This document shows, one piece after another, positions 2,080-29,346 of a DNA stretch of 64,000 nt (position 1 is its first letter; each line of letters begins with the position of its first letter). The DNA is from Escherichia coli O127:H6 str. E2348/69 (lineage in GTDB: Bacteria; Pseudomonadota; Gammaproteobacteria; Enterobacterales; Enterobacteriaceae): NCBI RefSeq assembly GCF_000026545.1, contig NC_011601.1, one strand, 5' to 3'. The notes beneath the pieces are model-generated. The model had not been told where the DNA came from, searched no databases, and saw only the letters and a list, made by a program, of their open reading frames with translations. Position numbers and translations under genes: made by a program.

Positions 2080-2097
2080 AAGGCGCTCCTTAAACCC

Positions 2098-3177
2098 TCA
2101 GCAATGGAACTCCATTACGCGGTTAATGGCAAATTGCAGATTATTATTATCAAACAGCCTCAACTTACGGCTGGCCCAGCGTTCGCCCGCAGGCCACTGG
2201 TGCAGCCCTTCCTTAACGGAGTCCAGCGTTGGTTGACATTCGCCACGGCTCAGCAACCAGTCTACGGTTGCCAGCAACTCCAGACCAAACGGCGATTCAA
2301 AGCCGTCAATTAACTGGCTGACCTGCTCCAGCGCAGGTAGCCACTCTCTGGCTTCGTTGTTCAGATACGCATTAACGTGTTCTTTTTTCTGATCGTTAAA
2401 CCAGATCACATCCAGCGGTTGGCTGTCCGGGATGCGTTTCTCGGCTTTAAGATAGGTGCCGTCCAGCGCATTAAGCAGATGGTTCAGATTGGGCGCATAG
2501 GGGCCATAATAGTGAGCTTCAAACCGCAGTTTGAGGATATCGTCCTGTTGATGCTGCTCAATGGCGCGTTGTAACAGCCAGGCCAGTTTCTGGATTTCCA
2601 GTAGGCTGCACTCCATCCCCAATACCCAGTAGCGACGCACCAGTTCAGCGATGGCGGCTCTGGCGGGAGTGAGCTTTTTTACGCCAGTGCTTTTGGCAAC
2701 GTTCTGGTATTTTTCAGTCGGTTGGTAAATCAGGATATCAACGTCCTGAAGGTCGCCAAGGGCAGATTCAATCTGCGCCCGAACGTCCGGCCAGTTCAAA
2801 CCACCGTTGCCTGCGCCCAGTGGTGGAATGGCGATGGACTGCACGTTCTCTTCAATCAAAAAGCGGCGTAAGTCCTGCAAGCCATCTTCAATCCACTCCA
2901 TGCGGGAATCAGCGCGCCAGTGCTGTTTGGTCGGAAAATTAACAATCCAGCGCGGTCCCATCAGTTCCCCGGTTTCGGTAATGAACATTTTGCCGGTGAT
3001 CACCTGCTTTTGTTTGCAGGCGAGGGCATAGACTTTCATATTTTCGGGGAAGCGCTCTTTAAACATCAACGCGATGCCTTTCCCCATGACACCGACGGTA
3101 TTAACCGTATTCACCAGAGCTTCCACCGGTGCGTCCAGTAAATTGCCTTGTGTATATGTGATCATGAGAAGTACCAT
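2098..3177 (-). CDS. darG: DarG antitoxin (N-terminal macrodomain, ADP-ribosyl-DNA glycohydrolase)
   Basis: 359-aa ORF; macrodomain signature near N-terminus ([26 protein letters not shown]). Alternative ATG at 3165 gives a 4-nt ATGA overlap with the darT stop. Confidence 0.85.
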
Positions 3178-3818
3178 CCAGACCGTGTGTGAACGGACAT
3201 TGTTAGATTACGCTGAAACAGCCATTGTTCTAATTGTAACCTGACCTCTTCGCTGTAACAAATTATCCCATCCAGCAGAGAGATCGGGCAGTGTTGCCAG
3301 ATTAGCGCCTCTGCCTGATAGCGTTCAAATTTAGCCGGATCGTCTGGATCGCGGCGAAAGTCCCGTGCCTGCAAAATGGGCCAGTCGATCTGGTCCAGAC
3401 TATTCAGACTGGTGTAGTAGTTGGTCCAGTTATAGTAAGCATGGCTGTCGGTAAACACGAAGGGCACGTCGTGTGCTGCCACGTTCCGCAAGTTGCTGAC
3501 CAGAATAACGATCTCCTCATTGGGGCGTCGCTTAATGCCGCCGCGCCCGCTGTGGATGTTCATCAGCATTGGCGAGAAGGGGGTAAAATAAAACGGCACA
3601 TAGTCATGCAGTGTCCCGCCCGTTCCGACAGGTACCGGATGCCCGGCACGCTTGCCGATCAGCTCCGGGTTGCCGATATTGATCCAGTTTTCCGCCTGCA
3701 CCAGACTGTTGCCGCAGTGCAGCCCGTTATCCAGAATCCACGGGATATTGTCCCGATGGACGATACGCCAGATCAGGGCTTTTTGCGGGTTGAGGCTGGC
3801 GCTGTAGTCATAGGCCAT
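3162..3818 (-). CDS. darT: DarT toxin (DUF4433 ssDNA thymidine ADP-ribosyltransferase)
   Basis: 218-aa ORF immediately upstream of and overlapping the macrodomain gene; size and sequence as recalled for enteropathogenic E. coli DarT; ATG at 3816-3818. Confidence 0.82.
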
Positions 3819-3829
3819 AGGTTTCCCTT

Positions 3830-5191
3830 CTATATTAAGCGGGTTTTCCCGGTTAACAACTCCTGCATCATCCCCTGTTTAAGCTGACGGGTTTTGTCCA
3901 GACGCTGTTGCAGGGTCTGAATTTCCTTGTCCATATCGGAGAGGATGGTGGCGATGGCGGTTTGTTCTTCTTTTGGCGGAAATGCAAGATGTAATTTCCT
4001 GATAATAGTAAGATTCAACCCACCACGCCCCCCATCACCAGTAGATAAACTTCTCAGTTCCTCATAACGACTGTCGAGGTTATAGAACAGGAATTCTGTG
4101 GAATGATGTTTGCTGGGGAAAATCGCAGCAATAGACTGATTAGTACATAATTCAATGCGATTAATTGCTACAGTCCCTCGAGTCTTTCCTTGTCCTGCCA
4201 ATCCGACTAATACAGAATTTTTAGGCACATACTTTGTACTGGAGTTAACAAGCCCTTCGTCGGTTATATAATCGGCTACAGCATACACCTGTTTTAGGTG
4301 TAATTCGCCGGAACTCATCCAAGGATGAGTTCCTCCCCAATATGCTGAAATTTTAGTACTCGGAGTTCCACCAGCACAGCAGTCAGTAAATTGTCCAATG
4401 CTTGTGACTACCCAATCTTCAGGAATCGCCCCCAACTCGCTCTTTTTATATCCCTTAGCAGAGCCATCTTTGCGCAACGCAAACTGTGGCAAACGGGTTT
4501 TACCAGTCAGTAGTTGCTGCATTGTGGCAGTTTTGATGGACTGTTTTTTTGAGAGTAATTTTTCTAGGGATAGAATCAAGCTATCAACATTGGTTAATAC
4601 ATTAGCAATAGCCTTTTGCTCTACGATATTTTTCGGTATAGATATGCATAACTTCTCTAAAACTGAACGTTTAATCCCTTGGGCCGTTGAACCAGTCGCG
4701 CTTTCAGAAATATATGATTGAAAACGCTCTGATAATAAGATTTGGAGTATTAGTGATGGAGAAAAATTCTCTCTATCTATTTGTAAAAGAATTGTTCTCT
4801 GGCTAAGAATATATTTTTTGTTATCAGGAATAGATGCTGCATTCCCCAGAGGGGCTTCCATTGTGAAAGCTATGTCCCCTTTTTGGGGATGACCGGATGT
4901 CATCCAGCGCTTATATAGTTCTTCGGAACCAAAGTAACATTCAGTAGATAAATCTATATATCCTTTTTTAACATTAGCAGCAGAAAGGGCAACGATATCC
5001 CCATCCCCCCAATCCATTCCAAGTTTTTTGGGAGTTCTGCCGCGATAATCAATTATGTTGGTTGTCAGGTTTAATATCGTGGATACAACCCAATCCTCAG
5101 GAATCATCTCCATCTCAGTCAGCTTATACCCCGCAGGCACACCTTTCCCCACCGTACCCGACCGTTGCTCATTCAGCATTAAATCCACCAT
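3830..5191 (-). CDS. hsdS: Type I R-M specificity subunit (HsdS), two target-recognition domains
   Basis: ~453-aa ORF with the conserved LTGKTRL repeat after each TRD; ATG at 5189-5191 overlaps the hsdM stop by 1 nt (track start 5197 is an alternative GTG). Confidence 0.88.
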   Translation of the reverse strand: MVDLMLNEQRSGTVGKGVPAGYKLTEMEMIPEDWVVSTILNLTTNIIDYRGRTPKKLGMDWGDGDIVALSAANVKKGYIDLSTECYFGSEELYKRWMTSGHPQKGDIAFTMEAPLGNAASIPDNKKYILSQRTILLQIDRENFSPSLILQILLSERFQSYISESATGSTAQGIKRSVLEKLCISIPKNIVEQKAIANVLTNVDSLILSLEKLLSKKQSIKTATMQQLLTGKTRLPQFALRKDGSAKGYKKSELGAIPEDWVVTSIGQFTDCCAGGTPSTKISAYWGGTHPWMSSGELHLKQVYAVADYITDEGLVNSSTKYVPKNSVLVGLAGQGKTRGTVAINRIELCTNQSIAAIFPSKHHSTEFLFYNLDSRYEELRSLSTGDGGRGGLNLTIIRKLHLAFPPKEEQTAIATILSDMDKEIQTLQQRLDKTRQLKQGMMQELLTGKTRLI

Positions 5192-7629
5192 CACCACTCC
5201 AGCCCCATCGCCCGCAAATGCCCGGCCACTTTCTCGCTCAACGCCTCAACGGCGGCTGCAAGTGCTGGCAACGGTTCAGCATAACGCTCTTCCAGCTCCT
5301 TTACGCGCGACGCCAGTTGCTGGGTAATACGCTCTATCTCCGCTTTGATCCCTGCCTGCAATGTTGCCAGCCACTTATCCTGCACTACCAGCGTTTTAAT
5401 CGCTGCTTCATCCAGCGTGGGATAATGTTTAAATACCGCTCGATCCAACGCTTTCTGTGCGGCTTTTAGCGCTTTTTTCGCACTGGCCTCGGCCTTAATC
5501 AGCGCCAGACAGCGGTTCAGCACTGCCAGCTCATCCGGGTCGGCAGGGGTTTTCTTCAACTGTGCCAGACGGGCATTCACCAGCTTTTGCGTCACCTTAT
5601 CTTTATCGTTTTTCGCCTCAGCCAGCAGATCCTCTTCCCCTGCCTGCTCCTCGATGAATTCCACTAGCTGACGACTGGCTTCTTCACTACGCTCCTGCGC
5701 GCGGTTCAGCGCATCCAGCAGTTCCGGGAAACAGCGAATTTCCACCAGCGAACGGGGCAGCACATCGGCCTTGTAGCGCCGTTTGGTAAACTCGAAATCG
5801 TGCGTTTCTTTCCAGATGTTTTTGCCATCTTTGCCTTTCACCGGCTGAAGCTCGCGGATTTGCGCGGCGGCTTGCCAGCCATCCTGCATAATCACATACA
5901 CATCGTCCTGCATGACATCAGCCCAGTAATCCATCAGGATCTGGTACACGCTGTATTTGTTCAGCAACTCACTGTTGGCGTACTGCGCCAATAGCATTTC
6001 GCTGATATCGTGGATTAGCGCTTTGGGTTTATCTCCTTTGCGGATCTCTTCCAGACCTGCCTCTTTTACCCACGACTTAAACGGTAGCAGGCTGCGGGTG
6101 GCAAAATCCTTAAACTCCTGATGAGCCAGAATGGTCGGTTTCACCTGCTGAGCGTCCACTTGCGCCCGGCAGTAACCGGGGTGGTCGTCAGCAAACAGCA
6201 CATTACGCAGGGCAGGGAATACCCGCCAATAATCCTTCAAAGCATCTACATCGCGCACTGGAATACCGCCTTGTAAGTGCGCGGTCAGATCGTGCAAATC
6301 TTCCGGCTCTCCACTCTCGATATAACGAGGAATATTCAGGTTGTAATCATTCCCGGCGATCTCGCTGGAGGGCACCATCCGGCTGTAGCCTGGCACCGTT
6401 CGCTGATGGTTGAACACGTCCACAATACGGTGAATATCTTGGCTACGCAGGCGGTTCTTGTTGCCATCTTTGATAAAGCCCCGACTGGCGTCGATCATAA
6501 AAATGCCTTTGCGGCTGTGGGCGTGCTCTTTATCAATCACAATGATGCACGCCGGGATGCCGGTGCCGTAAAACAGGTTGGCTGGCAAACCAATAACGCC
6601 TTTGATATAGCCCTGCTTGATTAGGTTTTCACGGATATTCGCTTCGGCGTTACCGCGAAACAGTACGCCGTGGGGCAGGATTACCGCGCCTTTGCCGGTA
6701 CTTTTCAGGCTTTTAATGATATGCAACAAAAAAGCATAATCGCCGTTTTTTTCCGGCGGAATACCCCAGCCGAAGCGTTCAAACGGATCTTTTTTTGGCG
6801 TCAGCCCGTTGGTCCAGTTTTTATTGGAAAAAGGCGGGTTCGCCACGGCAAAATCGAAGGCTTTCAGTTTGCCGTTCGCCTCTTTCCACTGCGGATCGCT
6901 CAGCGTATTGCCCTGCCAGATTTTCGCGGTGGCATTGTTATGCAGAATCATGTTCATCCGCGCCAGCGCACTGGTAGCGTTATCCATCTCTTGGCCGAAA
7001 ATCGACAGTCCGCGCCGGGCTTCATCATTCACTTTCAACAGCAGCGAACCAGAGCCACAGGTTGGGTCATAAACCGTTGCATCTCGCGGCGTATCGGGAG
7101 TAATACCAATCACCTTCGCCAGAATACGTGACACCTCCGCCGGAGTGTAAAACTGTCCTTTACTCTTGCCGGATTCGGTTGCGAAGTGACGCATCAGATA
7201 TTCATAGGCATCGCCCAGCAGATCGTCGCCTTCGACCCGGTTGCTGGAGAGATCTAACCCTTCAAAGATACCGACAAGCTTGCTCAGGCGGTCAATCATT
7301 TCCTTGCCTTTGCCGAGTTTATCTTCGTCGTTAAAGTCGGCTTCGTCGATGACGCCCTTCAGGCCGTTCTCTTCCGCCAGCTTGTGGATGATTTTGTTGA
7401 TTTTATCGCCGATCTCTTTGTCATTTTTCAGCGCAACCATATCGTCAAAGCTGGCTCCTTTGGGTATCACGATCATCCCGTAAGGATCGCCTTTATACTT
7501 ATCGGAAACGTACTTCATAAACAGCAGGGTCAGTACATAGTCTTTGTACTGGCTGGCGTCCATCCCGCCACGCAGTTCGTCGCAGCTTGCCCACAGGGAA
7601 GAATAGAGTTCGGTTTTTTTGATAGCCAT
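5191..7629 (-). CDS. hsdM: Type I R-M N6-adenine DNA methyltransferase (HsdM), unusually long (812 aa) with a C-terminal coiled-coil extension
   Basis: HsdM-type N-terminus (ELYSSLWASCDELRGGMDASQYKDYVLTLLFMKYVSDKY), SAM-binding FYTP and catalytic NPPF motifs; ~280 aa alanine/lysine/glutamate-rich helical tail. Confidence 0.88.
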   Translation of the reverse strand: MAIKKTELYSSLWASCDELRGGMDASQYKDYVLTLLFMKYVSDKYKGDPYGMIVIPKGASFDDMVALKNDKEIGDKINKIIHKLAEENGLKGVIDEADFNDEDKLGKGKEMIDRLSKLVGIFEGLDLSSNRVEGDDLLGDAYEYLMRHFATESGKSKGQFYTPAEVSRILAKVIGITPDTPRDATVYDPTCGSGSLLLKVNDEARRGLSIFGQEMDNATSALARMNMILHNNATAKIWQGNTLSDPQWKEANGKLKAFDFAVANPPFSNKNWTNGLTPKKDPFERFGWGIPPEKNGDYAFLLHIIKSLKSTGKGAVILPHGVLFRGNAEANIRENLIKQGYIKGVIGLPANLFYGTGIPACIIVIDKEHAHSRKGIFMIDASRGFIKDGNKNRLRSQDIHRIVDVFNHQRTVPGYSRMVPSSEIAGNDYNLNIPRYIESGEPEDLHDLTAHLQGGIPVRDVDALKDYWRVFPALRNVLFADDHPGYCRAQVDAQQVKPTILAHQEFKDFATRSLLPFKSWVKEAGLEEIRKGDKPKALIHDISEMLLAQYANSELLNKYSVYQILMDYWADVMQDDVYVIMQDGWQAAAQIRELQPVKGKDGKNIWKETHDFEFTKRRYKADVLPRSLVEIRCFPELLDALNRAQERSEEASRQLVEFIEEQAGEEDLLAEAKNDKDKVTQKLVNARLAQLKKTPADPDELAVLNRCLALIKAEASAKKALKAAQKALDRAVFKHYPTLDEAAIKTLVVQDKWLATLQAGIKAEIERITQQLASRVKELEERYAEPLPALAAAVEALSEKVAGHLRAMGLEW

Positions 7630-7668
7630 TAAATATCTCGTTTTGCGCGATAATGTGCCGTAAGTCGG

Positions 7669-7914
7669 TTACAGCAGATCGGTATTCAGACCGGCGGCCT
7701 TTAACCGACGGGTTAAGTTACGCATTTTGCTGAATTCGGTACCGAGGCTCTGGCTCAGACCAGTGCCTTCGCAAAAGGCTTTTGCCGTAATGTGTTCCAG
7801 TTTGTCGGCATATTTAATCATTTGCAGGTGCAGCTCGACGGTGTACTGGTTACGAGGCGCACTGGAAAGTGCCTGCCGGATATGGCGATAAATCTCGTCT
7901 TCATCCATATTCAT
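7669..7914 (-). CDS. Small hypothetical protein (~81 aa) directly upstream of hsdM; possible regulator
   Basis: ORF co-oriented with hsdM and ending 40 bp before its ATG; likely start at internal ATG 7912-7914 (MNMDEDEIYRH...). The track N-terminal extension begins at a TTG and runs through the tandem repeat. Confidence 0.4.
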   Translation of the reverse strand: MNMDEDEIYRHIRQALSSAPRNQYTVELHLQMIKYADKLEHITAKAFCEGTGLSQSLGTEFSKMRNLTRRLKAAGLNTDLL

Positions 7915-9059: not shown

Positions 9060-9428
9060 ATGGCTAATAGCGAAATTGTTCCGTTTTCTGAAATTGTTAC
9101 AAGCAAAATAGACCTCAATCAAGCTGTAGCTCAAGGTCAAGAGATGACTGATACTCTTAAAAAAATGGGTATCAAAGAAGCGACATTTGATAGTGGAGCT
9201 TACTATAAACATGATCACGAATCGCAGACCACTACTCTTGCAGCTGATGGAATCTTGATGCGGCAGAGCCTCCACATTACAACAGTTATTTTCCGTAACG
9301 AAGGAAGTACTGAACAACAAGCTTTAGAGGAGCTTAATGCTGGTTCTCTGACACAAAAAACCTTAGGTGCATTCTCTGGAGTCTCTCAACAGAGAGCGTC
9401 TGAGCTACTCCAAATTGAAAAAGAATAA
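9060..9428 (+). CDS. Hypothetical protein (122 aa) with a C-terminal helix-turn-helix-like segment
   Basis: ORF in a low-GC block; AGGA ribosome-binding site upstream; C-terminal TQKTLGAFSGVSQQRASELLQIE resembles XRE-type HTH. Confidence 0.5.
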   Translation: MANSEIVPFSEIVTSKIDLNQAVAQGQEMTDTLKKMGIKEATFDSGAYYKHDHESQTTTLAADGILMRQSLHITTVIFRNEGSTEQQALEELNAGSLTQKTLGAFSGVSQQRASELLQIEKE

Positions 9429-9497
9429 TTATAAATAGGTTAGTAACGGCAGTTTTCTGCCGTTACTAAGAGTATTTACTCAAAATTAGGGAGTATT

Positions 9498-9884
9498 ATG
9501 GGATTCAATGACCAGCCCAAAAACCTGAAAAAATCCATTAACGATAAATATAACAGAAGGGTAAAGTCACTTTCTCGGCATCTCGAGGATTTTATTTATC
9601 ATGCAGAAATGAAACTGGACGAATCTATTTCTGGAAGGATTTATCGCAGAAGCGAGATTGAGTCAATTGTTGAGAAAGTAAAAGAATTGATGGCTATCCT
9701 TCCGGCTTCAGATGAACCTCCTTCAATTAATTTTGATATTCTTGAAATCATTGAGAATGCAACAGAAGAAACTCAGCGCATTTTATCAGAAGGACAAAAA
9801 TTCTTCGACAACCTCTCTCCTGAAGAATTGGCAGAAATGATATCAACATTCCAACAAAATAAAAAAGATAGTGAATCTGAGTGA
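9498..9884 (+). CDS. Hypothetical protein (128 aa), acidic and predicted helical
   Basis: ORF 70 bp downstream of and co-oriented with the previous ORF; GGGAG ribosome-binding site; no recognisable motif. Confidence 0.45.
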   Translation: MGFNDQPKNLKKSINDKYNRRVKSLSRHLEDFIYHAEMKLDESISGRIYRRSEIESIVEKVKELMAILPASDEPPSINFDILEIIENATEETQRILSEGQKFFDNLSPEELAEMISTFQQNKKDSESE

Positions 9885-19479: not shown

Positions 19480-21867
19480 ATGATGCACGAAAAGAACATC
19501 GCCCTGCTTTGTGATGAAGCCGACCGGCTTTTGCAACTGAATATCAATCTGCTCCGGCAAATGGTTGATGAGCCGGATGTGTTATCTGACAGTAAGAACG
19601 AAAACGGGCTGCTTTTTGATAAACGGAAAGCGCTGAAAAGAATTGAGGAGCTGGAGGGCGAACAAATCAAAACCGCCCGCAGGGAGATGGTGCTGGCTGT
19701 GGTCGGCACGATGAAGGCGGGCAAATCAACCACCATCAACGCCATTGTGGGGCAGGAAATTCTGCCCAACCGTAACCGCCCCATGACCTCGGTACCGACA
19801 TTGATCCGCCACGTTCCCGGAAAAACGGAACCGGTCCTCCATCTGGAACATATTCAGCCCGTCCGCAATTTATTAATCACACTGCAGGAAAAACTCGCCA
19901 CCCCGGCAGGGCAGCAAGTCGCACAGTCCCTGCAGCAAACCGGGGATACCCGCGAACTACTGGATATTCTGGCGGATGATGTCTGGCTTAAAAATGAATA
20001 CCACGGGGAAGACGAAATCTTTACCGGACTGGCATCGTTAAATGACCTGGTTCGTCTTGCTGCGGCAATGGGGACTGAATTTCCTTTTGACGAATACGCA
20101 GAAGTGCAGAAACTACCGGTGATCGACGTGGCGTTCAGCCACCTGGTGGGAATGGATGCATGTCAGGGAACACTCACACTGCTGGATACCCCCGGCCCTA
20201 ATGAAGCCGGACAACCACAGATGGAAATGATGATGCGGGATCAACTACAGAAAGCCTCTGCGGTGCTGGCGGTGATGGATTACACCCAGATGAACTCGAA
20301 AGCCGATGAGGAGGTTCGTAAAGAGCTTAATGCCATTGCTGACGTCTCAGCCGGTCGTCTGTTTGTGCTGGTCAATAAATTCGATGAAAAAGATCGCAAT
20401 GGTGATGGTGCGGATGCCGTACGCCAGAAGGTGCCAGCAATGCTGAACAGCGATGTGCTGCCCGCCTCCCGCGTTTATCCCGGCTCATCACGTCAGGCGT
20501 ACCTTGCTAACCGTGCGCTTCATGAGTTACGAAAAAACGGTGCGCTTCCGGTTGATGAAGCCTGGGTCGATGATTTTATCAGGGAAGCTTTCGGACCTAT
20601 GGTGGAAGAGGACGACTGGAAAGACAGCACTAAGGTAAATAAAAAGGCAGAAAAACTCTGGAATATATCTCTGATCGATCAACTGATAACGGAAGTCATA
20701 CAGAGCTCCCATTCCAGAGCGGCGGCACTGGCGGTTGACTCTGCCGCCGCAAAACTGATGCAGAATGCAGAAAATATCAGCGAATATCTGTCATTACGTC
20801 ATCAGGGGCTGCAGCAAAGCATTCAGTCACTACAGGCGCATATTACCAGCCTGCTGGCGGATATCCAGGAGATTGAGGAATGTCAGAATCAGGTGACCGG
20901 TGATGTCAGAATGGCCATGGAGGACATCAATACCAAAACCGGGGAATTACTGACGAAGGTCTGTGCCTCACTGGAGGAGGAGCTGAACGACTATTTCAGA
21001 AGCGGTAAACGCAAAGAACAGCAAATGCTGGAGGAAGAAAATTCAGCGCAGCCCCGGGAGAGAAACGCATTCGCTTTCTTTCACGATATTTTCGGAACCG
21101 GAAATCAGCATGACAGGATGCGGGACTTTGATCCGGACAGCCCCGAAATAAAATTCAGTGATCGCAGGGCAGCCCTTGAACTGATGACGCAAATCGAATC
21201 GACCGTGACCAGCCTGCACCGTGAGGCTGAAGCACAGTTCCGGCCTGAGCTGGAGAAAATCGTCAGCGGGATTGAAACAGGTTTTCGTGGCACGGCCCTG
21301 TACGCCACAGAAAACATTGCCGGTCGCATCAATGCCCGCCTGGAGGATGAGGGCTTTACCGTAAAAATCAGTTTTCCGGCAGTCAGCCAGTTACAGACCC
21401 GGCTCGCGGTAAAAATAAATCTGAGTGCGCTTATGGAGGAAAGAACGGAGACCGTCACCCGTCGCCGTCGGCAGAGTGGCGTATGGGGAACCGTTTGTCG
21501 ATGGTTTGGCACCAGTGACCTGGGCTGGGAAAACTATGACGAGGATGTGAGTCGCAGCGTGATCAATATCAACAAGGTCAGAGAGGAAGTTATGTCACTG
21601 ACCCGGGCATATTTCGGGGAGCTGCAGGCATCCATTGAGCAGGATATTAACCAGCCCGTCCGCCAGGAAATCGATGCCTTTTTCTGCGCATTCAGGGAGA
21701 AAGTTGAACAACTGCGTAACACGCTGATTCAGAGCTCTGAAGATCATAAACGCGATCAGCAGGCGCAGGAACGGCTTACCGGGCGACTTCAGGCATTAAA
21801 TGAAAGGGTTCCTGAGCTCATTACTGACAGTAAGGCGCTGAGGGAAGAGCTGGAGACAATGCTGTGA
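19480..21867 (+). CDS. Dynamin-like GTPase, CrfC/YjdA-like (795 aa)
   Basis: G1 GTMKAGKST (nt 19705-19731), G3 DTPGPNE, G4 NKFD; long helical C-terminal region; resembles recalled E. coli CrfC (YjdA) N-terminus. Confidence 0.85.
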   Translation: MMHEKNIALLCDEADRLLQLNINLLRQMVDEPDVLSDSKNENGLLFDKRKALKRIEELEGEQIKTARREMVLAVVGTMKAGKSTTINAIVGQEILPNRNRPMTSVPTLIRHVPGKTEPVLHLEHIQPVRNLLITLQEKLATPAGQQVAQSLQQTGDTRELLDILADDVWLKNEYHGEDEIFTGLASLNDLVRLAAAMGTEFPFDEYAEVQKLPVIDVAFSHLVGMDACQGTLTLLDTPGPNEAGQPQMEMMMRDQLQKASAVLAVMDYTQMNSKADEEVRKELNAIADVSAGRLFVLVNKFDEKDRNGDGADAVRQKVPAMLNSDVLPASRVYPGSSRQAYLANRALHELRKNGALPVDEAWVDDFIREAFGPMVEEDDWKDSTKVNKKAEKLWNISLIDQLITEVIQSSHSRAAALAVDSAAAKLMQNAENISEYLSLRHQGLQQSIQSLQAHITSLLADIQEIEECQNQVTGDVRMAMEDINTKTGELLTKVCASLEEELNDYFRSGKRKEQQMLEEENSAQPRERNAFAFFHDIFGTGNQHDRMRDFDPDSPEIKFSDRRAALELMTQIESTVTSLHREAEAQFRPELEKIVSGIETGFRGTALYATENIAGRINARLEDEGFTVKISFPAVSQLQTRLAVKINLSALMEERTETVTRRRRQSGVWGTVCRWFGTSDLGWENYDEDVSRSVININKVREEVMSLTRAYFGELQASIEQDINQPVRQEIDAFFCAFREKVEQLRNTLIQSSEDHKRDQQAQERLTGRLQALNERVPELITDSKALREELETML

Positions 21868-22769
21868 CTTCACCATTTATTCAACAAATTGCTGATAACC
21901 GGGTATGTCAGGTACTCACCTGTCTTCCTGAAAAATTTGTGGTTGATTTCGCAAACGGAATCGATGTTGCACAGGAGCATATCCGCACGGCCGGAGAGCG
22001 CACGTTCTTCCGGCGTTTAAAAGAGGGGCTGACCGGCGAAGGCGCTGCACGGCAGAATGCCATCAATGCGTCGCTTGCACAGGGCGTTGAGGCGTCCCTG
22101 CGCTGGCTGACGGAGATGACAACGTCACTTGCCACCACAAACTACGCGATTACCCGGGTAAACGACAGGGTCAGTTCACTGGTCAGTGATACAGCCAGGC
22201 TGGCGCATTATTCCGCAGATACGCGGGAGCAGTTACTCACCCTGGCCGATCAGGTTCACCATAAACTGAATCATCTTGAAGAAAAACTCCACCGTGTTGA
22301 CCAGGTTCAGCGGGCGCAGTTACATCTTGAGCAGATATTCTCATGGTGGAGCGCCGGGCGATATGCGTCATTTTCCCCTGCCGGACGTTGTTATGTGGCA
22401 CTTGAAGAGCTTCGCTGGGGCGCGTTTGGTGATGTGATACGTCAGGGCGAAACAGGCCAGGTTAACCAGCTACTGGATATTCTCAGACATAAAGCATTAA
22501 CGCAGATGGCACAGGAGAGTGGCGGTAGTGCAACCGTGCGTCTGAACACTCTGGACTGGCTTGGTGGTCAGGGCCGGGAGCAGGCAGATAACGAGTGGCA
22601 TGACGCGATTAACTGGCTGGGAGACTGGTGCAGTGAAGAGCAGCATCCGGTGATCTGGTCAACCACGCAGGCTGCAGAACACTTACCGGTTCGCATGCCT
22701 CGCCTCTGCTCTGCAGAACGCCTCTCTGAAAGTATGGTCGATGAAATATTTCAGAAGGGGGCTGCATGA
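21864..22769 (+). CDS. Hypothetical protein (301 aa), YjcZ-like partner of the dynamin GTPase
   Basis: Start overlaps the dynamin stop by 4 nt; no nucleotide-binding motif; size and position match YjcZ next to yjdA in K-12 (sequence similarity to YjcZ not verified). Confidence 0.6.
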   Translation: MTSPFIQQIADNRVCQVLTCLPEKFVVDFANGIDVAQEHIRTAGERTFFRRLKEGLTGEGAARQNAINASLAQGVEASLRWLTEMTTSLATTNYAITRVNDRVSSLVSDTARLAHYSADTREQLLTLADQVHHKLNHLEEKLHRVDQVQRAQLHLEQIFSWWSAGRYASFSPAGRCYVALEELRWGAFGDVIRQGETGQVNQLLDILRHKALTQMAQESGGSATVRLNTLDWLGGQGREQADNEWHDAINWLGDWCSEEQHPVIWSTTQAAEHLPVRMPRLCSAERLSESMVDEIFQKGAA

Positions 22770-23836
22770 GTACAGAAATGAAAACGGGGCTGGTGCTGTC
22801 CGGTGGCGGGGCGGTGGGCGCTTATCAGGCGGGAGTGGTTAAGGCACTGGCAGAGTGTGGTACACAGATCAGCATGGTTTCAGGGACCAGCATTGGCGCA
22901 TTCAATGGTGCCATTATCGCGGCCTCTCCCGATCTGTCAGAAGCTGCCGTACGCCTGGAGGCGCTCTGGGAGCATCTGGGGAATAATCAGGTGCTGTCGG
23001 TAAACAGATTGGTTTACTTTTCATTGCTGAAAAAATTGTTCCAGGCAATGAACCTCTGCCAGATCCCCGGACGTGCAGGAGCACTGCTTACGACGCTTCT
23101 TCGCCATATATCGACAATCAACGGGTTTGACAATCTGATGGCTCAGCCGTTGTTGTCAGATGAGCCCCTGACAGCGCTGATGGATCATTATCTTGATACT
23201 GATGCTCTGGCAGACGGGCTACCGCTGTATGTGTCGCTGTACCCCACAGAAGGGGGCATGCAGGATATTATTGACTGCATTCGTGCTGAACTGGGTGTCG
23301 GAACCACGAAAAACGCCGTTTTTCAGCATATCCAGAGCCTGCCCCGCGGACAGCAGAAAGAGGCTCTGCTTGCGTCAGCCGCGCTGCCCCTGCTGTTCCG
23401 TCCCCGTGAGGTTCAGGGGACAATGTTCGGTGATGGTGGTATGGGAGGATGGCGAAATATGCAGGGAAATACCCCTGTGACGCCTCTGGTCGATACCGGA
23501 TGCAATATGGTGATTGTGACGCATCTGAGTGACGGTTTTTTATGGGATCGCAAGGCTTTTCCGGACACCACAATCCTTGAGATCCGTCCCCGGAAAAGGC
23601 TGAAATATGCAGGTGATGGTGGCAACAGCGGCGGTCTGCTCAGTTTTACATCGGCACATACCGACGCCTGGCGTCAGCAGGGCTATGAAGACACGATGCT
23701 GGCGATGGAGCATATCCGGAAACCGCTGGCAGCACGTCAGGCACTGACCCGGTCAGAGGCGGTATTGCAGAAAAGCCTGGATATAACGGAAGAGGCAGAT
23801 TTGGCACTGAGAAACGCGATGGCCCGGATTAAATAA
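22766..23836 (+). CDS. Patatin-like phospholipase (356 aa)
   Basis: Oxyanion-hole GGGxxG (LSGGGAVGAYQAG), nucleophile elbow GxSxG (GTSIG, nt 22883-22897) and catalytic-Asp DGG (FGDGG) motifs; start overlaps the previous stop by 4 nt. Confidence 0.85.
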   Translation: MSTEMKTGLVLSGGGAVGAYQAGVVKALAECGTQISMVSGTSIGAFNGAIIAASPDLSEAAVRLEALWEHLGNNQVLSVNRLVYFSLLKKLFQAMNLCQIPGRAGALLTTLLRHISTINGFDNLMAQPLLSDEPLTALMDHYLDTDALADGLPLYVSLYPTEGGMQDIIDCIRAELGVGTTKNAVFQHIQSLPRGQQKEALLASAALPLLFRPREVQGTMFGDGGMGGWRNMQGNTPVTPLVDTGCNMVIVTHLSDGFLWDRKAFPDTTILEIRPRKRLKYAGDGGNSGGLLSFTSAHTDAWRQQGYEDTMLAMEHIRKPLAARQALTRSEAVLQKSLDITEEADLALRNAMARIK

Positions 23837-24108
23837 AGACGCCCCAAAGAAACGCCACCGCCTGTGGTGGTGTTTTTCCTGTCTGGTGTTATTGAAAATA
23901 TTTTCAGATATATATTATCTGGGTGATGGTTAAGATGAATTTATTTAATTTTGGGGGAAGATACAAAAACAACCAGTGAACATATTTCCGGCGGGTTATC
24001 CGCAATGCTGAAGGTCCGTTGCACTGGCGATGCCGGAATACAGCTTAATACGTGGTTCGCCAGTGAAGGGCTTCTCAGACAATAAACCTCATTCATTTCA
24101 CCCATCAG

Positions 24109-24139
24109 GCCGCGTCTTCTCCGGGAGACGCGGCTTTTT
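24109..24139 (+). terminator. Rho-independent terminator-like hairpin
   Basis: GCCGCGTCT-loop-AGACGCGGC followed by TTTTT, ~270 bp after the patatin gene and before the DUF932 gene. Confidence 0.6.
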
Positions 24140-24175
24140 CATTTATATCGCTTAATCATTCATAAGGAGCAAATC

Positions 24176-24994
24176 ATGAGATTAGCCAGTCGTTTTGGTT
24201 ATGCGAACCAGATACGTCGTGATCGTCCGCTGACACACGAAGAACTGATGCGCCATGTACCGAGTATTTTTGGGGAAAACCGACATACCTCTCGCAGTGA
24301 ACACTATGCGTACATTCCCACTATCACCGTCCTGGAAAATCTGCAGCAGGAAGGCTTTCAGCCGTTCTTTGCCTGCCAGACCCGCGTGCGCGACCAGAGC
24401 CGCCGGGAATACACAAAACACATGCTGCGTCTGCGGCGGGCCGGACAGATAACCGGTCAGCATGTCCCTGAAATTATTCTGCTCAACTCCCATGACGGTT
24501 CATCCAGCTACCAGATGTTACCCGGATATTTTCGTGCCATTTGTACCAATGGACTGGTCTGCGGTCAGTCTCTGGGAGAATTGCGTGTTCCACACCGGGG
24601 AAATGTGGTGGACAAAGTCATTGAAGGGGCTTACGAGGTGGTGGGCGTTTTTGACCGGATAGAGGAGAAGCGTGATGCCATGCAGTCGCTGGTCCTGCCG
24701 CCACCGGCACGCCAGGCGCTGGCACAGGCGGCACTGACTTACCGTTATGGTGACGAACATCAGCCCGTCACCACCGCCGACATTCTGACACCACGACGCC
24801 GGGAGGATTACGGTAAGGACCTGTGGAGTGCTTATCAGACCATCCAGGAGAATATGCTGAAAGGCGGGATTTCCGGTCGCAGTGCAAAAGGAAAACGTAT
24901 CCATACCCGGGCCATTCACAGCATTGATACCGACATTAAGCTCAATCGCGCATTGTGGGTGATGGCAGAAACGCTGCTGGAGAGCATGCGCTGA
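24176..24994 (+). CDS. DUF932-family protein (YfjQ/YafZ-like)
   Basis: 272-aa ORF strongly resembling recalled K-12 CP4-island YfjQ-family proteins. Confidence 0.75.
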   Translation: MRLASRFGYANQIRRDRPLTHEELMRHVPSIFGENRHTSRSEHYAYIPTITVLENLQQEGFQPFFACQTRVRDQSRREYTKHMLRLRRAGQITGQHVPEIILLNSHDGSSSYQMLPGYFRAICTNGLVCGQSLGELRVPHRGNVVDKVIEGAYEVVGVFDRIEEKRDAMQSLVLPPPARQALAQAALTYRYGDEHQPVTTADILTPRRREDYGKDLWSAYQTIQENMLKGGISGRSAKGKRIHTRAIHSIDTDIKLNRALWVMAETLLESMR

Positions 24995-25084
24995 TGCCGT
25001 TTCACTGAAAGTGCAGTCCTGACTCACATCTGTTCCTGCCCCGGGGCTTCTTCCATTCATTTACTTTTTATAAGGAATAACCTC

Positions 25085-25570
25085 ATGACAACCGTTTCGC
25101 ATAATTCCACCACACCTTCTGTTTCCGTAACCACTGCATCAGGGAATAACCCACCTCAGCTGGTTGCCACTCCCGTCCCTGATGAACAGCGCATCAGCTT
25201 CTGGCCGCAGCATTTTGGCCTCATTCCACAGTGGGTGACCCTGGAGCCCCGTGTCTTCGGCTGGATGGACCGTCTTTGCGAAGACTACTGCGGTGGTATC
25301 TGGAATCTGTACACCCTGAACAACGGCGGGGCATTTATGGCACCCGAACCGGATGACGATGATGACGAAACATGGGTACTGTTCAATGCCATGAACGGCA
25401 ACCGCGCTGAAATGAGCCCGGAAGCCGCCGGTATTGCTGCCTGTCTGATGACGTACAGTCATCATGCCTGTCGTACGGAGTGTTATGCCATGACGGTCCA
25501 CTATTACCGGCTGCGGGATTACGCCCTGCAGCATCCGGAATGCAGCGCCATTATGCGCATCATTGACTGA
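25085..25570 (+). CDS. Antirestriction protein (ArdB/KlcA family; YfjX/YeeS-neighbour type)
   Basis: 161-aa ORF with acidic DDDDDE stretch, resembling K-12 YfjX/YafX-type antirestriction proteins. Confidence 0.7.
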   Translation: MTTVSHNSTTPSVSVTTASGNNPPQLVATPVPDEQRISFWPQHFGLIPQWVTLEPRVFGWMDRLCEDYCGGIWNLYTLNNGGAFMAPEPDDDDDETWVLFNAMNGNRAEMSPEAAGIAACLMTYSHHACRTECYAMTVHYYRLRDYALQHPECSAIMRIID

Positions 25571-26062
25571 ATGGAGGCAGGGACAATGCAGCAGCTTTCC
25601 TTTCTGCCCGGAGAGATGACGCCCGGCGAGCGCAGTCTCATTCTGCGGGCCCTGCAAACCCTGGACCGCCATCTTCATGAACCCGGCGTGGCCTTCACCT
25701 CCACCCGTGCGGCACGGGAATGGCTGATTCTGAACATGGCGGGACTGGAGCGGGAAGAGTTCCGGGTGCTGTATCTGAACAACCAGAATCAGCTGATTGC
25801 CGGTGAAACCCTCTTCACCGGCACCATCAACCGTACGGAAGTTCATCCCCGGGAAGTGATTAAACGCGCCCTGTACCACAATGCCGCTGCCGTGGTGCTG
25901 GCGCACAATCACCCGTCCGGTGAAGTCACACCCAGTAAGGCAGACCGGCTTATCACCGAACGTCTGGTACAGGCACTGGGCCTGGTGGATATCCGGGTGC
26001 CGGACCATCTGATAGTCGGTGGCAACCAGGTTTTCTCCTTTGCCGAACATGGTCTGCTTTAA
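25571..26062 (+). CDS. RadC-like JAB/MPN-domain protein (YeeS/YfjY family)
   Basis: HNHPSG JAMM motif; alternative start at MQQLSF (25586). Confidence 0.8.
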   Translation: MEAGTMQQLSFLPGEMTPGERSLILRALQTLDRHLHEPGVAFTSTRAAREWLILNMAGLEREEFRVLYLNNQNQLIAGETLFTGTINRTEVHPREVIKRALYHNAAAVVLAHNHPSGEVTPSKADRLITERLVQALGLVDIRVPDHLIVGGNQVFSFAEHGLL

Positions 26063-26124
26063 CCCGTCACAACCACATCACACCTGTTTTCACTTTTATC
26101 TTCTGTCTTCAGAGGTATCACATC

Positions 26125-26346
26125 ATGAGAATCATCACCCGTGGTGAAGCCATGCGTATTCACCAACAGCATCCTGCATCCCGTCTTTTTCCGTTCTGTA
26201 CCGGTAAGTATCGCTGGCACGGCAGTGCTGAAGCGTATACTGGTCGTGAAGTGCAGGATATTCCCGGCGTTCTTGCCGTGTTTGCAGAACGCCGTAAGGA
26301 CAGTTTTGGCCCGTATGTCCGGCTGATGAGTGTCACCCTGAACTGA
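26125..26346 (+). CDS. YeeT/YfjZ-like DUF987 protein
   Basis: 73-aa ORF near-identical to recalled K-12 YeeT. Confidence 0.8.
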   Translation: MRIITRGEAMRIHQQHPASRLFPFCTGKYRWHGSAEAYTGREVQDIPGVLAVFAERRKDSFGPYVRLMSVTLN

Positions 26347-26508
26347 TGTTCCGTCACCCGGGAAACGAGTACGACCAGATGACCTCAGACGCCGCTGTGG
26401 ATGAGGCCATTCTCATCAATGCATACATCTTCACCGAAACCGGTCAGCGCGCCGGCTGACCTGTCATCGTTAAACCATTCTTAACCACTTTTCAGAGAGG
26501 ATTTTATC

Positions 26509-26883
26509 GTGTCAGACAAACTCTCCGGGATAACTCATCCCGATGACAATCACGACCGCCCCTGGTGGGGGCTTCCCTGCACAGTGAGGCCCTGTTTTGG
26601 CGCTCGTCTGGTGCAAGAGGGTAACCGCCTGCATTACCTTGCTGACCGCGCCGGTATCAGAGGCCGCTTCAGCGACGCAGATGCATACCATCTGGACCAG
26701 GCCTTTCCGCTGCTGATGAAACAACTGGAACTCATGCTCACCAGCGGTGAACTGAATCCCCGATATCAGCATACCGTCACGCTGTATGCAAAAGGGCTGA
26801 CCTGCGAAGCCGACACCCTCGGCTCCTGTGGTTACGTTTATCTGGCTGTTTATCCGACACCAGCACCCGCAACCACCTCATAA
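26509..26883 (+). CDS. cbeA: CbeA/YeeU-family type IV antitoxin
   Basis: 124-aa ORF near-identical to recalled YeeU (MSD...[15 protein letters not shown]...). Confidence 0.85.
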
Positions 26884-26929
26884 CCCCGAAGCTCTCACCT
26901 TTAGCACTACCAGTTACAGAGAACTTAAG

Positions 26930-27304
26930 ATGAAAACATTATCCGACACACATGTACGGGAGGTATCTCGCTGCCCGTCTCCCGTCACCATCTGGCAGAC
27001 ACTGCTCATCCGACTGCTGGACCAGCATTATGGCCTCACACTGAATGACACACCGTTTGCCGATGAACGTGTGATTGAGCAGCATATTGAGGCAGGCATT
27101 TCACTGTGTGATGCAGTTAATTTTCTCGTGGAAAAATACGCGCTGGTGCGTACCGACCAGCCGGGATTCAGCACCTGTCCCCGCTCTCAGTTAATAAACA
27201 GTATTGATATCCTCCGGGCTCGCCGGGCGACCGGCCTGATGACCCGCGACAATTACAGAACGGTAAATAACATTACCCTGGGTAAGTATCCGGAGGCGAA
27301 ATGA
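26930..27304 (+). CDS. cbtA: CbtA/YeeV-family toxin (cytoskeleton-targeting)
   Basis: 124 aa from [26 protein letters not shown]...; the track ORF is N-terminally extended. Confidence 0.85.
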
Positions 27305-27792
27305 TGAAACTGGCCCTGACACTGGAAGCCGACAGCGTTAACGTACAGGCACTGAACATGGGGCGCATTGTCGTTGACGTCGATGGTATTGAGCTCGCTG
27401 AACTGATTAACATGGTCTGCGATAACGGCTACTCCCTTCGTGTTGTTGATGAATCTGACCAGACCTCAGCAGAATGCACGCCACCATTTGCTACCCTTAC
27501 CGGCATACGCTGCAGTACCGCACATATCACGGAAACGGACAACGCCTGGTTGTACTCGCTGTCACACCAGACCAGTGACTTCGGTGAATCAGAATGGATT
27601 CATTTTACAGGTAGCGGATATCTGTTACGTACCGATGCGTGGTCATACCCGGTTCTGCGGCTTAAACGCCTGGGGCTGTCAAAAACGTTCCGTCGTCTGG
27701 TCGTCACACTCATCCGGCGTTATGGCGTCAGTCTCATTCATCTGGATGCCAGCGCTGAATGCCTGCCGGGTTTACCCACTTTCGACTGGTAA
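27301..27792 (+). CDS. YeeW-like protein
   Basis: 163-aa ORF overlapping the cbtA stop, in the position of yeeW in CP4-44. Confidence 0.6.
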
Positions 27793-27803
27793 CCAGGAAC
27801 AAC

Positions 27804-28001
27804 ATGAAATCATTAACCACGGAAACAGCGCTGGATATTCTGATTGCGTGGCTGCAGGACAATATCGACTGCGGATCGGGAATTATCTTTGACAACGATG
27901 AGGATAAAACGGATTCAGCAGCACTGTTGCCCTGTATCGAACAGGCCCGGGAGGATGTCCGTACCCTGCGTCATCTGCAGCTTCTGCACCAGAACCGGTG
28001 A
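27804..28001 (+). CDS. Small hypothetical protein (YpjJ-like)
   Basis: 65 aa from MKSLTTETALDILIAWLQDN... Confidence 0.5.
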   Translation: MKSLTTETALDILIAWLQDNIDCGSGIIFDNDEDKTDSAALLPCIEQAREDVRTLRHLQLLHQNR

Positions 28002-28085
28002 AGCTCACTCACCAGGCTTCATTCCTCTGACGCCAGCCTGCACAGGGCTGGCGTTTTCATTTATCTGCAAAAAGGAATATCGATT

Positions 28086-28928
28086 ATGTCAGATATCACA
28101 ATCTCCCGTCCGGAAGTGGTCAACGGGCATACGGACGTTATCTGCTCAACCAGCATTCGCCACATTCTGGCTGTACGAAAGAGTACACTGTTGCAAATCG
28201 ACACACTTATCCGACAACTGGCTGAAATCTCGGTGCTGACGGAAAGCATCGGAGGTAAAACTGCCCCGGACTGGGCCATGAAACAGGATTTTCGCTGCGG
28301 CTGCTGGCTGATGGAGAAACCCGAAACAGCAATGAAAGCCATTACCCGGAATCTTGATCGCGAAATCTGGCGTGACCTGATGCAACGTTCCGGGATGCTG
28401 TCATTAATGGATACGCAGGCCCGTGATACATGGTACCGGTCACTGGAGTACGATAATTTTCCGGAAATCAGCGAAGCGAACATTCTGAGCACATTTGAAC
28501 AACTGCACCAGAATAAGGATGAGGTGTTTGAGCGAGGGGTGATCAACGTCTTCAGAGGGCTGAACTGGAATTACAAAACCAATTGCCCCTGTAAATTTGG
28601 CAGTAAAATTATCGTCAACAATCTGGTGAGATGGGACCGGTGGGGATTTCATCTTATCACCGGACAACAGGCTGACCGACTCGCCGATCTGGAAAGAATG
28701 TTGCACCTGTTCAGCGGTAAACCAATCCCCGACAACCGGGGAAACATCACCCTTCGTCTGGATGATCACATTCAGTCTGTTCAGGGTAAAGAGAGCTATG
28801 AAGATGAGATGTTCAGCATCAGATACTTTAAGAAGGGCTCCGCGCATATCACGTTCAGAAAGCCAGAACTGGTTGACAGACTGAATGATATTATCGCAAA
28901 ACACTATCCTGATATGCTGGCAGTATAG
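28086..28928 (+). CDS. Hypothetical protein, 280 aa (possibly DUF4942 family), last island gene before serX
   Basis: Clean ORF with ribosome-binding site; family assignment is from memory and unverified. Confidence 0.5.
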   Translation: MSDITISRPEVVNGHTDVICSTSIRHILAVRKSTLLQIDTLIRQLAEISVLTESIGGKTAPDWAMKQDFRCGCWLMEKPETAMKAITRNLDREIWRDLMQRSGMLSLMDTQARDTWYRSLEYDNFPEISEANILSTFEQLHQNKDEVFERGVINVFRGLNWNYKTNCPCKFGSKIIVNNLVRWDRWGFHLITGQQADRLADLERMLHLFSGKPIPDNRGNITLRLDDHIQSVQGKESYEDEMFSIRYFKKGSAHITFRKPELVDRLNDIIAKHYPDMLAV

Positions 28929-29029
28929 CTTTGCCAGTATGCTCAAAGATCGGAAATTGTCCGATAAGATATGATCGCGGGGCATATAAACCGGTTTCAG
29001 ATGGCATACCCGATGGCATACTGTCTGGA

Positions 29030-29070
29030 AGGAAAAATAAAAAAGCGCATGTTAAACAATAACATGCGCT
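29030..29070 (-). terminator. serX rho-independent terminator
   Basis: Perfect 10-bp inverted repeat AGCGCATGTT/AACATGCGCT followed on the minus strand by a T-run, just 3' of the tRNA. Confidence 0.75.
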
Positions 29071-29077
29071 TATAATC

Positions 29078-29165
29078 TGGCGGTGAGGGGGGGATTCGAA
29101 CCCCCGATACGTTGCCGTATACACACTTTCCAGGCGTGCTCCTTCAGCCACTCGGACACCTCACC
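29078..29165 (-). tRNA. serX: tRNA-Ser (anticodon GGA)
   Basis: Reverse complement reads GGTGAGGTGTCCGAGTGGCTGAAGGAGCACGCCTGGAAAGTGTGTATACGGCAACGTATCGGGGGTTCGAATCCCCCCCTCACCGCCA; next to ghrA as in K-12. Confidence 0.9.
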
Positions 29166-29346
29166 AAATTGTCGTTCCTGTCTTGCTGGAACGGGCGCTA
29201 ATTTAGGGAAATCATGACCTGAGGTCAACAAACTTTTTTAAAAAATCGCTCGATTATTCAAACTTCAAGCAATATGCAGTTTTAATAAGCGAAATTTGCT
29301 TTTTTTGCCACCGACCACGGATTTGTTATGCTGGTGGCCTTTGTAG

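Follow-up and report, generated by a model that had tools for sequence, protein, structure and literature searches.

The DNA analysed here, referred to throughout as the window, is a stretch of 64,000 nucleotides from contig NC_011601.1 of the enteropathogenic Escherichia coli O127:H6 strain E2348/69, and all positions are given in the numbering of that window. The interval 24000-29200 matched three E2348/69 records at 100% identity. Between positions 24176 and 28928 it carries a block of nine genes on the plus strand, which an earlier note, made from the sequence alone, had described as a CP4-type toxin-antitoxin and antirestriction module residing with a restriction system. All nine open reading frames (ORFs) were confirmed at the coordinates first read from the sequence, the RefSeq annotation gives the identical nine genes, and the interval runs exactly from the first start codon to the last stop codon of the block. 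Families were called with Pfam and gene calls were compared with RefSeq; the genes, with protein lengths in amino acids (aa) and isoelectric points (pI) where relevant, are as follows.

24176-24994, plus strand: DUF932 protein of the YfjQ/YafZ type, 272 aa (Pfam PF06067, 4e-48)
25085-25570, plus strand: ArdB/KlcA-family antirestriction protein, 161 aa (Pfam PF03230, 2.5e-37)
25586-26062, plus strand: RadC-like JAB/JAMM protein of the YeeS type (Pfam RadC, 8e-45)
26125-26346, plus strand: DUF987 protein of the YeeT/YkfH/YpjJ type, 73 aa (Pfam PF06174, 8e-40)
26509-26883, plus strand: CbeA/YeeU type IV antitoxin, 124 aa, GTG start (Pfam PF06154, 1e-54)
26930-27304, plus strand: CbtA/YeeV toxin, 124 aa (Pfam PF06755, 6e-61)
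27301-27792, plus strand: full-length DUF5983 protein, 163 aa (DUF5983_N, 2e-31; DUF5983, 2e-22)
27804-28001, plus strand: small acidic protein annotated as DUF957, 65 aa, pI 4.5 (RefSeq annotation)
28086-28928, plus strand: DUF4942 protein, 280 aa, the final gene before the island end (Pfam PF13708, 9e-69)

The Pfam E-values for the module families are far beyond chance, and a scan of the module proteins against NCBIfam recognised RadC alone. The assignment to DUF957 is that of RefSeq; the Pfam scan of the ORF at 27804-28001 gave no match even at E<=1. The DUF932 protein has a pI of 9.5, and searches for a relative with a solved structure found none for either DUF932 or DUF5983. RefSeq starts the RadC-like gene at 25586, and an alternative ATG in the same frame, at 25571, directly adjoins the stop codon of ardB; further along, cbtA and the DUF5983 gene overlap by 4 nt at stop and start. 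Long ORFs that lie antisense or in alternative frames, such as one of 303 aa at 25139-26050 on the minus strand, had no family match and were taken as spurious. In other strains DUF987 and the YeeU antitoxin are separated by an additional gene of 215-227 aa, one copy of which is annotated as "antitoxin of toxin-antitoxin stability system"; in E2348/69 there is just a 162-bp gap at that place.

The block ends next to a tRNA gene, and three features lie at that end of the element to which it belongs.

29043-29071, minus strand: intrinsic-terminator hairpin for serX, supplied by the right end of the island (terminator-like scan)
29078-29091, no strand: 14-bp attachment core TGGCGGTGAGGGGG at the 3′ end of serX; the repeat recurs 60.9 kb to the left
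29078-29165, minus strand: tRNA-Ser(GGA) gene serX, the integration target (ARAGORN; Rfam)

The left copy of the 14-bp core lies immediately upstream of a tyrosine-type integrase, outside the window, so that the module stands at the attachment-site end of an island integrated in a tRNA gene, with the integrase at the far end. The sequence found 3′ of serX in K-12 sits in E2348/69 at the left junction of the island beside the integrase and not by the tRNA. From the repeat and this relocated native flank, it follows that the island spans record positions 1120166-1181077, which is 60.9 kb. The DUF4942 stop codon is about 150 bp from the right end, and the module is thus the integrase-distal end. 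The native sequence that followed serX, its own hairpin included, is now 60.9 kb away at the left junction, and the terminator of the island replaces the native one. Elsewhere the island carries lifA/efa1, nleB, nleE and espL together with many insertion sequence (IS) remnants. Between phoH and the left junction, E2348/69 is without the K-12 genes pgaABCD, dgcT and ycdU and has a DUF2726 gene instead. Gene content, gene order and island boundaries are matters of observation; the best explanation for them, which we consider likely to be correct, is that 24176-28928 is a conserved integrase-distal backbone module that serves its serX island.

The identification as a CP4-type module was borne out by the Pfam families, by gene order and by tblastn of the nine module proteins against K-12, for which the CP4-44, CP4-57 and CP4-6 regions were taken from MG1655. 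The DUF932, ArdB, RadC, DUF987, antitoxin and toxin genes follow one another on one strand, and homology to K-12 genes amounts to 88-99% identity with CP4-44 (four genes) and 61-82% with CP4-57 and CP4-6 (six genes). The E2348/69 module has in common with CP4-44 (yeeP-flu-yeeR-yeeS-yeeT-cbeA-cbtA-yeeW) its gene order and the upstream GTPase and Ag43 genes, and its RadC-like, DUF987, CbeA and CbtA proteins are 99%, 97%, 91% and 88% identical to those of yeeS, yeeT, cbeA and cbtA, respectively. In contrast, yeeR stands in CP4-44 where E2348/69 has DUF932 and ArdB, yeeW is a 64-aa stub (the K-12 tblastn match covers DUF5983 residues 6-60, about 55 codons), DUF957 is just a 30-codon remnant and the integrase is absent. 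E2348/69 also differs from CP4-44 in having a cassette of dynamin, RdcB and patatin genes between Ag43 and DUF932. The island-end order DUF932...ArdB-RadC-DUF987-antitoxin-toxin is shared with CP4-57 (yfjP-yfjQ...yfjX/lfgA-yfjY/lfgB-ypjJ-yfjZ-ypjF), and the order in CP4-6 (ykfA-yafZ...yafX-ykfG-ykfH-yafW-ykfI) is the same, with the toxin end abutting the tRNA gene thrW. The DUF932 protein is 73-74% identical to yfjQ/yafZ, DUF932 and ArdB are 71-75% identical to yfjQ/yfjX of CP4-57 and yafZ/yafX of CP4-6, and the RadC-like protein is 78% identical to YfjY/LfgB of CP4-57. However, besides the lower identities, both of these elements carry four to five extra small genes between DUF932 and ArdB and are without DUF5983, DUF957 and DUF4942.

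The earlier note had also placed the nine genes in the canonical order of the K-12 islands. The synteny comparison upholds this for the first seven genes but not for DUF957 and DUF4942, which are without an intact K-12 counterpart, and DUF4942 had no tblastn match in any of CP4-44, CP4-57 and CP4-6. Full-length DUF5983, DUF957 and DUF4942 therefore cannot be counted as K-12 canon, although they are present in the wider E. coli module. The label "YpjJ-like" that had been given to the eighth gene (27804-28001) has to be withdrawn, because K-12 YpjJ is a DUF987 protein encoded between yfjY and yfjZ and is thus a homologue of YeeT. The similarity of these regions among the P4-like prophages of K-12 and their location near attachment sites have been published (PMC5371832).

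The module is a ubiquitous, paralogous island backbone. Of 5426 complete E. coli genomes, 5425 have a match to the interval 24000-29200 of the window; 3597 contain 80% or more of it at a single location, and the median is 4 places per genome. Other E. coli serX and serW islands and the Shigella SRL pathogenicity island use the same tRNA-Ser target as the E2348/69 island. They share with it a backbone of integrase, DUF3987 and Inovirus Gp2-type genes, and DUF4942 is among the updated ORF annotations of SRL. The difference lies in the cargo, which in E2348/69 consists of the lifA/efa1, nleB, nleE and espL genes and IS remnants mentioned above.

For several of the module proteins, the likely activity can be read from well-studied homologues. 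Residues 26-161 of the ArdB protein are nearly identical to the crystal structure of ArdB from CFT073 (PDB 2WJ9, E=3e-98), and the protein also matches the structure of KlcA (PDB 2KMG) at 1e-19, which places it in the PF03230/ArdB fold. The CFT073 protein, encoded in pathogenicity island (PAI) II, belongs to the same Pfam family and differs in its N-terminal ~25 residues. CFT073 ArdB, YfjX and YafX relieve type IA, IB, IC and ID restriction in vivo by 10- to 9000-fold, with little anti-modification effect (mostly less than 3-fold) and no direct binding in vitro (PMC2836571). By analogy with these homologues, the E2348/69 ArdB is expected to suppress type I restriction, but not modification, by an indirect mechanism.

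The antitoxin and toxin genes form an adjacent PF06154/PF06755 pair, antitoxin first, with a 46-nt gap, as in type IV systems. CbeA matches PDB 2INW (5e-78) and the YeeU structure 2H28 (4.5e-74). Work on homologues has established that CbtA binds FtsZ and MreB and thereby stops both division and elongation of the cell, and the E2348/69 toxin retains F65, which has been shown to function in the interaction of CbtA with FtsZ (PMC5624674). Residues 16-124 are ~96% identical to K-12 CbtA, whereas residues 5-15 (26930-26975) differ at 10 of 11 positions and look like a small recombinant patch in a region implicated in MreB binding. Residue 15 within this diverged segment is Cys, as it is in YpjF and YkfI. 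Although R15C in K-12 CbtA abolishes MreB binding, YpjF and YkfI carry C15 naturally and still block elongation (PMC5624674). A loss of MreB targeting was ruled out as a reading of Cys15 on these grounds, and no loss of function of the E2348/69 CbtA can be inferred. In K-12, the CbeA homologues YafW and YfjZ neutralise the toxins YkfI and YpjF, which are homologous to CbtA. Toxicity of the E2348/69 CbtA and its neutralisation by CbeA would follow from this homologue work. The RadC-like protein has an intact HxHx7Sx2D metal-binding motif, HNHPSGEVTPSKAD as read from the translation, in keeping with the RadC/JAMM family, and its CP4-57 paralogue LfgB (YfjY) is reportedly a protease, with the antitoxin MqsA as the protein it cleaves (PMC10846083). 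The E2348/69 protein is thus probably a metalloprotease-type enzyme, to judge by its homologues.

The earlier note had placed a type I restriction system in the same island, and the hsdR, hsdS and hsdM genes were indeed found at the start of the window.

1-7908, minus strand: RRDM locus with hsdR (cut by the window start), darG, darT, hsdS, hsdM and rptR (Pfam; annotation)
7669-7908, minus strand: small helix-turn-helix repressor gene rptR (annotation)

The locus continues beyond the left end of the window. In it, darT and darG are embedded between hsdS and hsdR, and the HsdM protein, with 812 aa, is of unusual length. The E2348/69 locus shares protein accessions with the published RRDM system, which consists of RptR, a type I restriction system, DarTG2 and an M48 peptidase and which, when cloned in DH5alpha, protects against phages by 10^3 to >10^7 (PMC12255303). 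A separate, EcoR124I-like system restricts ~10^4-fold in E2348/69 itself (PMC2518929). That work, by Hobson et al. in 2008, was considered as evidence of RRDM activity in the native strain and set aside, since it concerns the different, EcoR124I-like hsd locus. An element that carries both ArdB and a restriction system is not paradoxical, because ArdB spares modification.

The co-residence of restriction and antirestriction genes had been taken to suggest a composite of separately acquired pieces, and in its fullest form this would make the co-residence an accident of mosaic assembly. Remnants of IS100, IS3, IS66 and IS30 flank the restriction block and fill the window from 10.9 to 16.7 kb, and flanking by IS remnants has also been described for the published locus (PMC12255303). 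RRDM is present in 272 of 5426 genomes, or about 5%, against 5425 for the module. The IS flanks and this restricted presence fit horizontal acquisition of RRDM. Between E2348/69 and strain YJ1, moreover, the identities are uneven, at 99.0% for hsdR-darG-darT and 96.6% for hsdS-hsdM-rptR compared with ~95% for the module. However, in each of the five RRDM contexts that were inspected (E2348/69, YJ1, O157:H7 17B6-2, 2013C-4538 and STEC2017-197), RRDM lies 8-17 kb upstream of the module, in the same orientation and next to tRNA-Ser, which is serX in three cases and serW in two. The common order begins with M48-hsdR-darG-darT-hsdS-hsdM-rptR, followed by a variable spacer, a GTPase gene and usually Ag43/Cah, and ends with variable cargo, DUF932-ArdB-JAB-DUF987-YeeU-CbtA-DUF5983-DUF957-DUF4942 and tRNA-Ser. 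No transposase or IS genes are annotated between RRDM and the module in three of the five. The same arrangement in all five contexts, at two tRNA loci, makes the linkage a property of the island family and not a peculiarity of E2348/69. RRDM and the module travel together as one island architecture that has spread across lineages, in a linkage that predates E2348/69. The suggestion of a composite is weakly supported: the IS remnants and the difference between 272 and 5425 genomes speak for it and the constant linkage against it, and we regard separate acquisition as unlikely, while allowing it a real chance.

We return to the explanation that we prefer, a backbone module serving its own serX island. 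The CbtA/CbeA pair would penalise loss of the island, and ArdB, perhaps with its neighbours, would help incoming DNA to survive when it reaches a new host. In an established island, the genes of the module would be largely silent, which would allow ArdB to coexist with the functional RRDM type I system of the same island. Since RRDM works in DH5alpha, which carries yfjX and yafX (PMC12255303, PMC2836571), and the EcoR124I-like system is active in E2348/69 itself (PMC2518929), resident restriction works despite chromosomal ardB genes, and we infer that the island ardB is poorly expressed after establishment. Several points weigh against this explanation. The silence of ardB in the established state is deduced solely from the fact that resident restriction works, and that CbtA/CbeA act as an addiction system in islands is an assumption. 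The RRDM enzyme, the candidate target of ArdB, has the atypically long HsdM described above. DUF5983, DUF957 and DUF4942 have been lost from K-12 and the YJ1 copy of DUF4942 is frameshifted, which suggests that these three genes are dispensable once an island is resident.

A functional coupling, in which ArdB would act as an establishment brake on the type I enzyme of its own island until the new host is methylated, appears improbable to us. The strongly antirestrictive ArdB homologues with their small effect on modification, the linkage of RRDM to an ArdB module in all five contexts, and the presence in RRDM of a repressor, a hint that control during establishment is important, would all suit such a brake. 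Yet with the module in almost every E. coli and RRDM in ~5%, ArdB cannot have evolved to serve RRDM. In the YJ1 module, DUF932 is missing and the ArdB gene is truncated, in addition to the frameshift in DUF4942, and RRDM is nonetheless intact; type I systems also have other routes of restriction alleviation.

That the module is decaying prophage debris without current function is, in our view, very improbable. K-12 copies are truncated at the DUF5983/DUF957/DUF4942 end, the adjoining GTPase and Ag43 genes are pseudogenes in E2348/69, and many DUF4942 database entries are partial. On the other hand, all nine ORFs are intact in E2348/69, identity over the nine genes is 99.8-100% in the strains that match best (O157:H7, O55:H7 and O111, for instance), and 1046 records have a best match of at least 95% identity. 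Homologues are conserved into Salmonella, Citrobacter and Serratia, and those of ArdB and CbtA are demonstrably active. Only a very slim chance remains for the module as an anti-phage defence system, for example with CbtA causing abortive infection and the RadC-like protein as sensor or protease: the island family is rich in defence cargo (RRDM here; Zorya, dGTPase and contact-dependent inhibition (CDI) genes in corresponding islands elsewhere) and the RadC paralogue LfgB cleaves an antitoxin, but none of the module proteins scanned with PADLOC (DUF932, ArdB, RadC, DUF5983, DUF957 and DUF4942, the scan having left aside CbeA, CbtA and DUF987) matched any model, ArdB is an anti-defence and not a defence protein, and the literature retrieved held no phage phenotype.

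The island-serving role of the module leaves its last gene to be accounted for. The earlier note had called this 280-aa product the least characterised member, and rightly so, yet it is not an orphan, as it belongs to the named Pfam family DUF4942. The match is full-length (profile positions 1-190 of 190, 9e-69), the family counts 2229 cluster representatives at E<=0.001, and W95, D201, H254 and N267 are invariant in an alignment of 70 sequences. The AlphaFold2 model is confident (pLDDT 89, pTM 0.82), with a helical N-terminal part and an alpha/beta C-terminal part. Comparison with the sequences of solved structures found nothing, either with the single sequence or with the 70-sequence profile, and Foldseek of the model against the PDB gave no match better than E=0.26. 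Among the predicted viral protein structures of BFVD, no more than four matches were significant. Three of these are phage proteins that are uncharacterised or without a name, and the fourth, of 531 aa, is labelled "Type I restriction enzyme".

In some homologues, 460-516 aa long, the DUF4942 domain is followed by a C-terminal class I methyltransferase core that has EPSAGxG and NPPF motifs, and the N-terminal part of the profile of PHROG 6263, named "DNA methyltransferase", matches DUF4942. The phage fusions share the domain with the E2348/69 protein, including W95, D201, H254 and N267, but the E2348/69 protein ends where their methyltransferase domain begins. Its 280 aa contain no methyltransferase Pfam family and neither S-adenosylmethionine (SAM)-binding motif I nor catalytic motif IV (N/D-P-P-F/Y/W). 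The label "restriction methylase", which some DUF4942 proteins bear, was rejected for it, since the motifs are found solely in the C-terminal extension of homologues of 460-468 aa. Distant stand-alone homologues occur in phage regions with genes for single-stranded DNA-binding protein (SSB), RecA, helicases and C5 or Dam methylases. One homologue lies on an IncP-like plasmid fragment, after korA-incC-korB and directly before a C5 methylase, and another adjoins Tn7-like genes. The family is neutral to basic, with a median pI of 7.3, and so is not an acidic DNA mimic.

From this domain architecture, our best guess is that DUF4942 is a non-catalytic nucleic-acid-recognition domain used by mobile elements. 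The E2348/69 protein would then be a stand-alone accessory corresponding to the domain that precedes a minimal adenine-methyltransferase core in some phage proteins. A more specific proposal, which we regard as rather doubtful, is that DUF4942 is the DNA-recognition domain of a phage family of minimal N6-adenine methyltransferases. Its stand-alone form, at the extreme end of tRNA-Ser islands, on IncP-like plasmids and in the early regions of phages, would on this proposal be a new establishment or anti-defence factor that might occupy or mask DNA sites or act at the island end.

Two further hairpins lie in and beside the module.

24107-24136, plus strand: GC-rich hairpin with a 13-bp stem followed by a T tract, ~40 nt 5′ of the DUF932 start (terminator-like scan)
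28029-28055, plus strand: GC-rich hairpin with an 11-bp stem and a T tract, between DUF957 and DUF4942 (terminator-like scan)

Both end in the same TTTTCATTTAT tail, and they may act as attenuators or terminate the units that precede them. The first forms the left edge of the conserved module; K-12 yfjQ and yafZ are preceded by an equivalent hairpin with a different stem sequence. Because of the second, DUF4942 may be transcribed separately. A single-strand promoter of the leading-region type was considered upstream of DUF932 and rejected, as the fold z-score of -3.45 on the plus strand is explained by two short terminator-like hairpins and no long promoter-forming hairpin was found there. A scan for sigma-70 promoters found one site, against 5.2 expected by chance.

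To the left of the module lies, in degraded form, what usually precedes it in the conserved distal segment.

16973-19438, plus strand: frameshifted GTPase gene of the YeeP/YfjP type, IsrC-like small RNA (sRNA) match and truncated Ag43/Cah gene

The sRNA match (RF00124) is at 17961-18197, and the Ag43 gene is truncated at both ends. Together with fragments of IS3, IS66 and IS30, these features form a cluster at 10900-19438; in contrast to the intact end module, the middle of the island is heavily degraded. A three-gene cassette occupies 19480-23836, between the Ag43 fragment and DUF932. It encodes a GTPase of the dynamin family (795 aa), a protein of the RdcB/YjcZ family (301 aa) and a phospholipase of the patatin-like type (356 aa). 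Its PADLOC matches are only weak (LeoBC, 1.6e-05; phospholipase effector, 6e-06), and it could have a membrane-acting role in defence or stress; 607 E. coli genomes contain at least 80% of the interval 16900-24175, in which it lies. Between rptR and the IS cluster, at 9060-9884, two hypothetical ORFs of 122 and 128 aa have a low GC content of 36-40% and no Pfam match. The same slot in related islands holds ParA genes, an anti-phage dGTPase or other hypotheticals, and looks like a hotspot for variable cargo. In the serW and serX islands of other strains, type I Zorya, CDI loci and the anti-phage dGTPase are found next to RRDM, and the serX/serW island family acts as a carrier of defence cargo.

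The module, its toxin-antitoxin pair, ArdB and the neighbouring RRDM system are already published and hold nothing surprising for a specialist. What should prove useful are the exact boundaries of the serX island, including the island-derived terminator of serX. The linkage of RRDM to an ArdB-bearing module in every context inspected is relevant to measurements of RRDM activity in native strains. DUF4942, a widespread mobile-element protein with no solved neighbour, is a reasonable target for structural and functional work. If the proposal of a stand-alone establishment or anti-defence factor were true, tRNA-Ser islands would have, in addition to ArdB, a second function that protects them on entry.

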